Virus record (IMG/VR): IMGVR_UViG_2582581022_000020
Location: 1 to 11,649 of that record
Source of the DNA: a virus
Taxonomy: Duplodnaviria > Heunggongvirae > Uroviricota > Caudoviricetes
Length of the DNA stretch: 11,649 nt
Strand: one strand, 5' to 3'
The notes under the pieces: generated by a model
The model's input: the letters and a program-made list of their open reading frames with translations, nothing else
What the model was told of the DNA's origin: nothing
Databases searched by the model: none
Part shown: positions 1-6,725 of the stretch, piece after piece
How positions within the stretch are numbered: the stretch's first letter is position 1
Layout: each line of letters starts with the position of its first letter
Position numbers and translations under genes: made by a program

Positions 1-420
1 ATGACGGATTATCAGCCATACAGGAAAGGAACTGTGCTTGCCCCAACTGGACCATGCAATCATCTTCATGTGATTTGTAATGATCCTGTTTATTACCCCG
101 TTAACGATTGTTATTGTGTTTTAGTTGTTAATATTTCTAGTATCAAGGATGGTGTCCCCCACGATCCGTCTTGCGTCTTGAATTCTGGTGATCATCGCTT
201 TATCAAGCATCCAAGTTATGTTGTTTACGCTGAAGCTATAATTTGGCGAGTGGATAACATGGTTAGAAAGCTGCGATCGGGTGAGATTTCTGTTCATGAT
301 GATATGCCAGAAGCTACATTCAATAGAATTCTGGACGGTTTTGATATCTCTGATGAAGTTACGCCAAAGAACCTTAAATTTAAAAATAAATATTGCGTAT
401 CATCTATTGATGATGAGTAA
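1..420 (+). CDS. Hypothetical 139-aa protein, first gene of a plus-strand cassette opposite to the early-left operon; weak Kid/PemK/MazF-like pattern
   Basis: Complete ATG-to-TAA ORF, protein-like composition. Segment-wise resemblance to the Kid/PemK toxin fold, judged by eye only (RKGTVLAPTGP, CVLVVNISS, YVVYAEAIIWRVDNM, MPEATFNRILDGF). Confidence 0.45.
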   Translation: MTDYQPYRKGTVLAPTGPCNHLHVICNDPVYYPVNDCYCVLVVNISSIKDGVPHDPSCVLNSGDHRFIKHPSYVVYAEAIIWRVDNMVRKLRSGEISVHDDMPEATFNRILDGFDISDEVTPKNLKFKNKYCVSSIDDE

Positions 421-459
421 ACAACAGGAATTGTTTCGGTATAACTTCTGGAGTTTTCT

Positions 460-633
460 ATGGAAGATCAAAAAGCAACCAAGCCACAGGTTAAGTTCGA
501 CACAATGAAAGCATTCGTAGGTATGGGTGCTGCTGTTGAAGTTCTGATGAAGGCTGCTCCTAATGCGTTCACTCACGCTACTGTCTCTGGTAAAGAGCAG
601 CAGGGTAAGCTTCGTCGTCTCAAAGCAGCATGA
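460..633 (+). CDS. Small hypothetical protein, 57 aa (MEDQKATKPQVKFDT...KLRRLKAA), below the ORF-track length cutoff
   Basis: ATG at 460 preceded by GGAG (450-453) with a 6-nt spacer; TGA at 631-633; strong terminator 20 nt downstream. Confidence 0.4.
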   Translation: MEDQKATKPQVKFDTMKAFVGMGAAVEVLMKAAPNAFTHATVSGKEQQGKLRRLKAA

Positions 634-652
634 TCATAGCTGGTGCTTTTTG

Positions 653-678
653 AAAACCCGCCTTCAGGCGGGTTTTTT
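653..678. terminator. Bidirectional rho-independent terminator between convergent genes
   Basis: AAAACCCGCC-TTCA-GGCGGGTTTT stem-loop with a T-run on the plus strand and an A-run upstream (T-run on minus); lies between the plus-strand stop at 633 and the minus-strand stop at 681. Confidence 0.75.
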
Positions 679-680
679 CT

Positions 681-962
681 TTAGTGATTTTCTTTGCCCT
701 TCTGTTTGACTGTTCTGACCTGTTCCCACTCGATACGTCCTTCTTCTCGCCTTTTGTCTATGTATTCCGCAAGATCCTGAATATTGATGCAACGTTTTGC
801 TTTTTGTGATGTGCCGATGCGATATGTTGGAACGGGCAACTTACAAGCGTTTGCTTTTGCTTCTGCCGTGGCTGGACTCATACCAAAGTACTTTTGGCTA
901 ACTGCTGAGAGTTCAATGTTTGGGGTATTGAATTCAGCCATCAGTAAAAACAAGGTGTTCAT
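681..962 (-). CDS. PrtN/excisionase-family small DNA-binding protein; last gene of the leftward early operon
   Basis: N-terminus MNTLFLLMAEF and C-terminal DLAEYIDKRREEG fit the recalled PrtN-family pattern. ATG at 962 has a GGAGA RBS with ~5-6 nt spacing; the ORF track's 989 start is GTG without an RBS. Confidence 0.6.
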   Translation of the reverse strand: MNTLFLLMAEFNTPNIELSAVSQKYFGMSPATAEAKANACKLPVPTYRIGTSQKAKRCINIQDLAEYIDKRREEGRIEWEQVRTVKQKGKENH

Positions 963-998
963 AATTTTCTCCATCAAAACCGGCTGCACCCGGGAAAA

Positions 999-5400: not shown

Positions 5401-5646
5401 ATGACTTTTGATGAAAAAGAACTTGATAATGCAATTAATAAAATCATCGTAACGTCGCTCTTTTCCTGTCTCAGCGACACTCAGCAGAAACAGTTCTACG
5501 AATCGGCTTTCAACATGATCGAGCGTTGTTGTTTCTGCGATGCCGATGAGTTACCTGAAAAAATCAGGAAACAGTTGGCTGATGCTCTTCGAGTGCGACT
5601 TTCTGACCAATTTTCTGAAATGTGCTCTCGGAATTTGGACAAATAG
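5401..5646 (+). CDS. Hypothetical 81-aa protein, rightward gene between the leftward early operon and cI
   Basis: ATG at 5401 with AAGGA RBS and 7-nt spacer; helical, charged composition. Confidence 0.5.
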   Translation: MTFDEKELDNAINKIIVTSLFSCLSDTQQKQFYESAFNMIERCCFCDADELPEKIRKQLADALRVRLSDQFSEMCSRNLDK

Positions 5647-5839
5647 AAAAAGGCCATTTCCATTCAGGGTCTGATGGAAAGACTTCAGCCTGTTCTAAAG
5701 CACGGCGTAAAGAGAATACAACTCCAGCCATAATCTGATGTTTCCCATTGGCCCAGCTATCGCCGCTCTGATCTACAGGGGCGGCTATGTCGTATGACCA
5801 AACGACTTCACAGTTATTGTTTAAAATCTGGACTTTCAT
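5564..5839 (-). CDS. Questionable 91-aa ORF, first ORF downstream of the pL-like promoter
   Basis: ATG with GGAGG but a 12-nt spacer. The 3' 83 nt overlap the convergent plus-strand gene, and a weak hairpin plus U-run (5641-5680) lies inside it. Not Arg-rich like N. Confidence 0.3.
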   Translation of the reverse strand: MKVQILNNNCEVVWSYDIAAPVDQSGDSWANGKHQIMAGVVFSLRRALEQAEVFPSDPEWKWPFSICPNSESTFQKIGQKVALEEHQPTVS

Positions 5840-5955
5840 TTTGATCTTTAACCTCCAGATACGGGCGTTTAATTGCCCCGCCGAACAGCTCTTTTCCGCA
5901 ATAGCTGCAATGTCTTTCGCGAATCAGCCTGCGCATTCACCACAACTCTAAAAAC

Positions 5956-6011
5956 AAATGTAGGATATCCAACATGTAAGTGTCAAGAGTTTATGTTGGT
6001 TATCCTACATA
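5956..6011 (-). promoter_or_regulatory. pL-like leftward promoter with two OL-type operators
   Basis: On the minus strand, -35 TTGACA (plus coords 5981-5986), 18-nt spacer, -10 TACATT (5957-5962). 18-bp operators ATGTAGGATATCCAACAT (5958-5975) and ATGTTGGTTATCCTACAT (5993-6010). Confidence 0.55.
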
Positions 6012-6071: not shown

Positions 6072-6725
6072 TCAAAAATCCATTATTACTTGTTTGACAA
6101 GACCAACTATTCTGCAGTTCTCACCGCATTCAATAGTTTTATAGTTAGGATTTAGTGGGACGAGATACCTGTTCGGCCAGTCCTCAACAAATTTTTTGAG
6201 TGTCGCTTCTTGCCCACCATTGATATGGGCAACAACGATTTTTCCGTTAATACACTCTGTATCAATAATATCTGGCTCTACGATAACGATAGAACCTTCT
6301 GGTATCGATGGTGAGCCGAGGGGATTGGTCATTGAATCACCACGGACCCGTAGTGCAAATGCCATTTCTGATACAAGGGCGGTAGTATAAACCCACTCTT
6401 CAGCATCTTCTTTCCTGACACCAGGCTCCGTCATTGTCCATGAACCCGCCTGAACCCACGAGATGAGGGGGACTTTTTTAACTGCGAATATTTCAGGTTT
6501 TAGATTTATCTTTGGTTCAGGCGAGCCTTTTCCGCTAACAAGCCACAGAGGATCGCATTTAAGTGCGTTGGCTAGGGCTTGAAGGTTGGCTCCATTTGGT
6601 TGGTAGTCGTCCTTTTCCCATCCAGTAACCGTGACACGGTTCACACCAGTCAAATCAGCCAGTGCTTGTTGTGTCAGGTTCAGTTCTTTTCGCCTTTGGC
6701 GAATACGATCACTCATGTTCATCAT
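6072..6725 (-). CDS. cI: Lambda-cI-type prophage repressor (HTH plus LexA-like S24 autopeptidase domain)
   Basis: N-terminal HTH (IRQRRKELNLTQQALADLTGV); Ala-Gly cleavage context VQAGSW; catalytic Ser in GDSMTNPLG and Lys in ATLKKF; the C-terminal domain (GDSMT...PLNPNY...VGLV) is collinear with lambda cI. Confidence 0.9.
   Translation of the reverse strand: MMNMSDRIRQRRKELNLTQQALADLTGVNRVTVTGWEKDDYQPNGANLQALANALKCDPLWLVSGKGSPEPKINLKPEIFAVKKVPLISWVQAGSWTMTEPGVRKEDAEEWVYTTALVSEMAFALRVRGDSMTNPLGSPSIPEGSIVIVEPDIIDTECINGKIVVAHINGGQEATLKKFVEDWPNRYLVPLNPNYKTIECGENCRIVGLVKQVIMDF

Follow-up and report, generated by a model that had tools for sequence, protein, structure and literature searches.

The viral record IMGVR_UViG_2582581022_000020 (IMG/VR; Caudoviricetes), analysed here over its first 11,649 nt (the window), begins with two open reading frames (ORFs) on the plus strand, one at 1–420 (139 aa, ATG start) and one at 460–633 (57 aa, ATG start), with 39 nt between them. 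What do these genes encode, and do they belong together? An earlier interpretation made without database searches (the sequence-only reading) had taken them for a two-gene cassette closed by its own bidirectional terminator, a moron in which a toxin faintly resembling Kid/PemK/MazF would be followed by a small partner. According to our analysis, the 139-aa product of window 1–420 is very probably PanT, the toxin component of a type II toxin–antitoxin (TA) system, PanA-PanT. The system would be cargo of a lambdoid prophage integrated at dusA, with the antitoxin gene panA upstream, and would have been swapped in for a gene encoding a GNAT-fold protein. Coordinates are window positions unless prefixed by a locus number; locus L001 is an E. 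coli locus with 99.9% identity, in which position 6447 corresponds to window position 447.

Over positions 1–1000, the window has 99.9% identity to chromosomes of E. coli, for example that of O103 RM8385. In these loci a 573-nt gene annotated as 'Panacea domain-containing protein' (190 aa) ends in a TGA at window 2–4; in L001 its coding sequence occupies 5432–6004 and terminates at window position 4. The product matched Pfam SocA_Panacea (PF13274, Panacea/DUF4065) with an E-value of 2.2e-19 and 70.9 bits (cut-off 25.7), and four phage PanA orthologues matched the same family at 8e-21 to 6e-27. E. coli PanA is a stand-alone Panacea domain with an acidic C-terminal tail at residues 138–190. Its GPV motif, G57-P58-V59 within SMKFGPVMSNTL, was found in all five translated PanAs; GPV is the conserved signature motif of Panacea and is critical for neutralisation (PMC8832971). 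The ATGA junction between panA and panT was also present in YeP1, Pluralibacter, Kosakonia, Brenneria, Pantoea, and a Methylococcaceae metagenome-assembled genome. The prophage ends to the left of panA, where a displaced 5' fragment of dusA is located. Lys8385Vzw, the phage excised from RM8385, is Stx1a-converting and integrated at dusA; its gene order is dinI-int, attP, panA followed by the 139-aa and 57-aa genes, and then the xis-like gene and exo. The 90%-identity cluster of the 139-aa protein also contained the 190-aa PanA and fusions of odd length (232 aa); the mixture probably arose in clustering, from gene calls that overlap or are fused at the ATGA junction.

The association of the two genes was examined in 9 phage matches and 26 genome loci with PanT relatives, which covered alpha-, beta-, and gammaproteobacteria as well as a Helicobacter prophage. 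Wherever sufficient upstream DNA was available (30 PanT loci), the gene directly before panT on the same strand encoded a PanA homologue and overlapped or abutted panT; one of these PanAs was fragmentary and one was truncated at the end of its contig. Kurata et al. 2022 (PMC8832971) defined PanA as the Panacea antitoxins and PanT as the toxins that go with them. Among the Dataset S1 entries at hand, the PanTs of Pantoea septica LMG 5345 and 'Yersiniaceae bacterium 2016Iso4' belong to cluster T6 in the A|T order, with overlaps of -4 and -1, respectively; Proteus and Pluralibacter are listed in T6 as well (PMC8832971). Two of our loci with relatives of the window protein, L013 and L012, derive from these same Pantoea septica LMG 5345 and 2016Iso4 genomes. 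The PanT of P. moraviensis (WP_083201923.1), another member of T6, was MazF-like by HHpred and toxic in E. coli, was neutralised by its PanA independently of ClpXP and Lon, co-purified with PanA in a pull-down, and acted as a specific inhibitor of protein synthesis in 35S-Met incorporation (PMC8832971). The closest bridge to it is Pseudomonas phage Sirocco, whose PanT has 48% identity to the window protein and whose PanA begins with VIFSEQKVAQ, matching the MIFSEQKVAQ restored by Kurata et al. to P. moraviensis PanA. Because of the T6 genomes, their gene order, and the Sirocco bridge, the 139-aa protein was filed as a PanT, and the pair at the window edge is a further member of this already described TA family. 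A literature search revealed no later mechanistic work on MazF-like PanTs beyond the known papers.

Both ORFs exist as the sequence-only reading had described them and both evolve under purifying selection. For the 139-aa ORF, comparison with the Pluralibacter and Kosakonia homologues gave a pN of 0.07 and a saturated pS of 0.77–0.84 in frame 1 only, with the opposite pattern in the other frames; it is a real gene. The family comprised 62 close homologues and 2719 representatives of 50%-identity clusters at E<=1e-3. The true start of panT is ATG 1 and not GTG 34, since the N-terminus is conserved (MTxYxPYRKGTVLAP), the alignment with phrog_19071 begins at residue 6, and the first strand of the PanT model begins at residue 10. 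RefSeq/PGAP (WP_014640052.1) starts the gene at GTG 34 and gives a product of 128 aa, while GenBank MT225100 has the ATG. The GTG start removes 11 conserved N-terminal residues and conceals the ATGA coupling to panA.

In two fold searches with the PanT model, MazF/Kid structures occupied the top ranks and scored higher than CcdB-type structures. The model has the SH3-like barrel of the MazF/CcdB type, and PanT is predicted to adopt a MazF/Kid-type fold; the by-eye resemblance to Kid/PemK/MazF is thus matched by the structural searches, though sequence profiles gave no match. Across the wider family H21 and H65 were invariant, and L22, D55, C58, G63, F67, S72, Y76, G113, and S117 were conserved in >=90% of members. 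H21 and H65, with D55, C58, S72, and Y76, are candidate active-site residues, and a role of H21/H65 as an acid-base pair is speculative. The catalytic residues of E. coli MazF are R29/T52 and those of Kid R73/D75/H17. Judged by secondary structure only, H21 (start of strand 2) and S46/S47 (end of strand 3) take the topological positions of MazF R29/T52. Searches of Pfam, NCBIfam, and PADLOC with the 139-aa and 57-aa proteins gave no meaningful match; ICMT and DapC appeared in these searches far under the cut-offs and were discarded as noise. A conserved housekeeping phage function, which the sequence-only reading had named among the outcomes that would speak against it, was rejected for the 139-aa protein: its distribution is patchy within one prophage family and its position varies across phages.

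Several observations weigh against the identification as PanT of a MazF-like type. There was no PemK_toxin (PF02452) match in PanT at E<=1 in Pfam. Against Protein Data Bank sequences, phmmer and a profile hmmsearch gave only chance-level matches, the profile search retrieving no MazF chain, and hhalign of the family profile against a four-sequence MazF/Kid/EndoA alignment returned a probability of 0.2%, too low for a mapping of residues. The catalytic Arg/Thr pair of MazF is not evidently conserved. PanT is acidic (isoelectric point 5.6), which is closer to CcdB than to typical MazF toxins. The window begins at the panT ATG and does not contain panA, the presence of which is deduced from the near-identical loci. 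Upstream of panA, the promoter scan found only a 9/12 promoter-like match, no better than expected from shuffled sequences, and PADLOC gave no match for PanA or PanT. The T6 assignment comes from matching genomes and gene order, not from accessions, and E. coli accessions of the pair were absent among the Dataset S1 entries at hand. Finally, eight predicted PanTs were non-toxic in E. coli (PMC8832971).

The 57-aa gene (orf57) has a different history. Phage mEp460 and prophages of O157:H7 and Salmonella share the att flank with the panAT prophages, as well as orf57, its terminator, xis, and exo, and carry one 177-aa gene in the place of panAT. In a blastn comparison of mEp460 with the E. coli locus, homology spanned the att flank and resumed at L001 6447, i.e. 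window 447; the intervening L001 5239–6446 (~1.2 kb) was specific to panAT-bearing prophages, and the corresponding slot segment is L002 2185–2987. The sequence GGAGTTTTCTATG is shared by the window, mEp460, and O157, and its Salmonella version is GGAGTTTTTATG; the sequence 5' of it differs. According to this alignment, the 139-aa and 57-aa ORFs lie in different modules, separated by a recombination junction near window 447. The proposal of a separate two-gene unit therefore does not hold, as the unit begins upstream with panA and this junction splits the two ORFs. The orf57-xis backbone was found in 550 complete E. coli genomes, 193 of them with panT, and the intact panAT cassette in 207 of 5426. 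Lambdoid prophages that integrate at dusA exchange cargo in the slot between attP and xis, where at least two alleles occur, one with panA-panT and one with the GNAT-fold gene.

Purifying selection also acts on orf57, which is a real gene: dN/dS was 0.05–0.2 versus divergent homologues, and a length of 54–58 aa was retained down to 49% identity. The protein is basic (isoelectric point 10), matches phrog_2741 at 1e-34, has 48 homologues in Enterobacterales, and contains the conserved core FDTxKAFAGMGAAVEVLMKAAP. Outside the panAT context orf57 was always 3' of a GNAT-fold gene of 177–184 aa (phrog_4350), and it occurred without PanT in mEp460, O157, Salmonella, Enterobacter, Hafnia, Edwardsiella, Photorhabdus, and Brenneria. 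The GNAT fold of this usual partner is supported by a predicted model of moderate confidence (pLDDT 75.6). The GNAT-orf57 pair (L002 2271–3220; L034, L037–L055; the window remnant at 447–687) took at least four positions: between attP and xis, between Q and the lysis genes (Enterobacter, Hafnia, Edwardsiella, and others), in the tail cluster (Photorhabdus), and beside the repressor gene cI (Brenneria). Homologues of orf57 away from the attP-xis position had 49–88% identity. In the Enterobacter Q-lysis context, the hairpin and T-run 3' of orf57 are closely similar to those of the window (two loop differences, slightly longer A/T runs), and most other contexts have an analogous hairpin and T-run terminator there. 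Given the junction, the GNAT contexts of orf57, and the terminators that travel with it, window 447–687 is the 3' remnant of a mobile module of GNAT gene, orf57, and terminator, the first gene of which was replaced by panAT.

The GNAT-orf57 pair had no match in Pfam, NCBIfam, or PADLOC; no orf57-specific promoter was found in the native GNAT-orf57 spacer, and a literature search for a described module of a GNAT gene with a downstream small protein gave nothing specific. In GNAT-linked contexts (L034, L002, L041, L044) a short stem-loop is located 10–30 nt upstream of the orf57 ATG, just 5' of the Shine-Dalgarno sequence (GAGAC...GTCTC in mEp460, AGAGC...GCTCT in Hafnia), and the panAT-linked junction is without it; the stem-loop may be a processing or translational-control element. 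Two Hafnia prophages (L041 2150–3109 and L042 2051–3109) encode a RelA_SpoT-domain protein immediately 5' of GNAT-orf57, within the moron region between Q and the lysis genes; in PADLOC, the L041 copy matched PDC-S33, a candidate defence system (1.2e-112). K2E distinguishes each of the three panAT-linked orf57 alleles examined from GNAT-linked ones, and the window allele additionally has A20V, at a site conserved in >=90% of homologues, and R54L. Compared with the GNAT-linked copy of O157, the window allele shows three non-synonymous and no synonymous differences, too few to separate relaxation from adaptation. Since orf57 persists without its GNAT partner in ~200 genomes, it is evidently not toxic alone. 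It is presumably co-transcribed with panAT, given the 39-nt distance and the lack of a promoter in the scans.

Could the two ORFs of 1–680 nevertheless form a toxin-first TA system, with the 57-aa protein as antitoxin or partner? They are close neighbours on one strand with one common terminator, orf57 is small and conserved, and toxin-first orders exist, as in higBA and mqsRA. Yet in 28 other loci PanT was never followed by an orf57 homologue, so that only the same E. coli prophage has one; orf57 occurs without PanT and then always 3' of a GNAT-fold gene, the junction runs between the two ORFs, and the position of the antitoxin is filled by the canonical PanA upstream in 30 of 30 loci. The pairing proposed by the sequence-only reading is largely refuted by this synteny and is scarcely credible. 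Doubtful, though conceivable, is a TA-for-TA swap, in which the 177-aa GNAT-fold protein and orf57 would be an undescribed toxin-first GNAT-type TA or defence pair with orf57 as its antitoxin or regulator, persisting here as an orphan (anti-addiction immunity) or as a third component of panAT. The known GNAT-toxin systems TacAT, AtaRT, and KacAT, relevant only to the usual partner of orf57, have a GNAT toxin with an upstream ribbon-helix-helix antitoxin; orf57 lies downstream at a distance of 90–200 nt with no evidence of such a fold, and its partner is without a family match and absent from the window.

PanT might also be neutralised by PanA and still have another target, as a CcdB-like gyrase poison or some other non-RNase toxin. 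Its acidity, the unrecognisable MazF catalytic residues, and the missing MazF signal at the sequence level would agree with this. We consider it very unlikely, as MazF/Kid structures outscored CcdB-type ones in both fold searches, the P. moraviensis toxin of the same cluster inhibits translation and not replication, and the two invariant histidines would suit the acid-base chemistry of an RNase. That the pair does not arrest growth in E. coli at all, being a non-toxic accessory pair (e.g. a sensor-effector against incoming phages) or a decayed module, is unlikely: the eight non-toxic PanTs (PMC8832971) and the lack of a promoter would fit such a view, but the 207 E. coli genomes have intact and tightly coupled copies of the two genes, PanT is under strong purifying selection, the pair is conserved across proteobacterial classes, and a same-cluster homologue is a validated TA system.

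The PanA-PanT reading suggests the following scheme. With panA directly upstream and translationally coupled to panT by the ATGA overlap, free PanT would most likely block protein synthesis by RNA cleavage, and PanA would most likely neutralise it by direct binding, both by analogy with the P. moraviensis pair of the same cluster. The cassette of ~1.2 kb, from the attP flank to window 446, displaced the GNAT-fold gene of the same slot, and orf57 remained with its own ribosome-binding site and terminator. As a result, panA, panT, and orf57 would now form one plus-strand unit that meets the early-left operon head-on at its xis-like end. A role in prophage addiction and/or abortive-infection defence is speculative.

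In both the window pair and the P. moraviensis PanA-PanT system, the antitoxin is encoded first and is a stand-alone Panacea protein that lacks any additional N-terminal domain, its stop codon overlaps the start of the toxin gene, and the toxin (~130 aa) is MazF-like in structure without a CDD or Pfam match; the T6 entries at hand list enterobacterial genomes with homologues of the window protein. The two differ in that the validated pair is scored 'NotPhage' among these entries, whereas the E. coli pair is prophage cargo. From MazEF and Kis-Kid (PemIK) the window pair is set apart by the Panacea domain of PanA, which is not of the AbrB or ribbon-helix-helix type of MazE or Kis, and by a PanT that lacks a PemK_toxin match, conserves H21, H65, D55, and C58 instead of the MazF residues R29/T52, and is ~25–30 residues longer with two C-terminal helices. 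With SocAB of Caulobacter, a type VI system in which SocA is a ClpXP adaptor, it shares the Pfam SocA_Panacea domain of the antitoxin; however, PanT has a MazF fold and is not SocB, and tested PanAs neutralise without ClpXP or Lon (PMC8832971). Membership in the SocAB type was rejected, NCBIfam SocA_antitoxin scoring 14.4 bits against a cut-off of 190.

The suggested moron-like placement agrees with the data, as panAT lies between attP and the xis-like gene, faces the early-left operon, and is replaced by other cargo in related phages. Morons of lambdoid phages, reportedly described by Juhala et al. in 2000, are additional genes that carry flanking signals of their own and that only some related phages possess. 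Like them, the panAT cassette sits between backbone segments (attP flank and xis) in some phages only, is opposed to the neighbouring operon, and has a terminator at its end. Unlike them, it uses a terminator inherited from the older orf57 module, and no promoter was identified by the scans.

The features of the locus are collected in Table 1.

Table 1. Features at the left end of the window and the evidence for each.
Feature	Position	Strand	Remarks and evidence
ATGA overlap	1..4	+	panA stop TGA (2-4) over panT ATG (1-3); body of panA outside the window
panT, 139-aa toxin with predicted MazF/Kid-like fold, PanT cluster T6	1..420	+	family, start codon, selection
3' edge of panAT cassette, non-coding, from panT stop to recombination junction	421..446	+	blastn of mEp460 vs E. 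coli locus
Start of orf57 module: Shine-Dalgarno GGAG (450-453) and 6-nt spacer	447..459	+	common to phages with the GNAT-fold gene
orf57, conserved 57-aa basic protein, phrog_2741	460..633	+	homologues, dN/dS, synteny
Intrinsic terminator: hairpin 652-677 and T-tract, travels with orf57	652..687	+	scan, folding, similar hairpins elsewhere
PrtN-family (xis-like) gene, last of early-left operon, right border of cargo slot	681..989	-	Pfam; annotated in L001, mEp460, and Lys8385Vzw

The hairpin at 652–677 is GC-rich, has 11 pairs, and is followed by TTTTTTCTTT; it lies inside the 47-nt gap preceding the convergent minus-strand gene. Folded as RNA it reached -19.6 kcal/mol (z = -2.8 versus shuffles). 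On its minus-strand side the hairpin is followed by UUUUC and then A5, and the terminator scan gave no call on this strand. The element is thus a strong terminator for plus-strand transcripts and a marginal one for minus-strand transcripts; of the claimed bidirectional terminator the plus-strand half stands, and bidirectionality is at best asymmetric. The promoter scan found no sigma-70-like promoter on the plus strand within 1–700 and nothing convincing inside panT, and an Rfam search of the whole window gave no RNA family. The convergence on a minus-strand early operon was correctly recognised: the excisionase-like PrtN-family gene (Pfam PyocinActivator, 4.2e-23) is the last gene of that operon, and the gene for a 3'-5' exonuclease comes after it. 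The best full-window matches among complete E. coli genomes had 90% coverage and 98.3% identity. Compared with RM8385/Lys8385Vzw the window is a mosaic, with ~100% identity over 1–1571 and ORFs at 1571–2262 that differ from the DUF551 gene found there.

In RefSeq, panT is 'hypothetical' with a wrong start codon in the 207 complete E. coli genomes, including that of the strain harbouring Lys8385Vzw, an inducible Stx1a-converting phage; in the published description of this phage the genes appear as hypothetical, and the term 'toxin-antitoxin' is absent. The PanAT identity predicts a translation-inhibiting toxin of the MazF fold, with H21 and H65 as candidate catalytic residues, and points to a possible stabilising or defence function in prophages of Shiga toxin-producing E. 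coli. The comparison also reveals the attP-xis cargo-exchange slot of dusA prophages and a widespread, unannotated mobile pair of a GNAT-fold and a 57-aa protein. These results are useful for the annotation of prophages in Shiga toxin-producing and other E. coli, and of most interest are the GNAT-orf57 pair and the slot that it shares with panAT.
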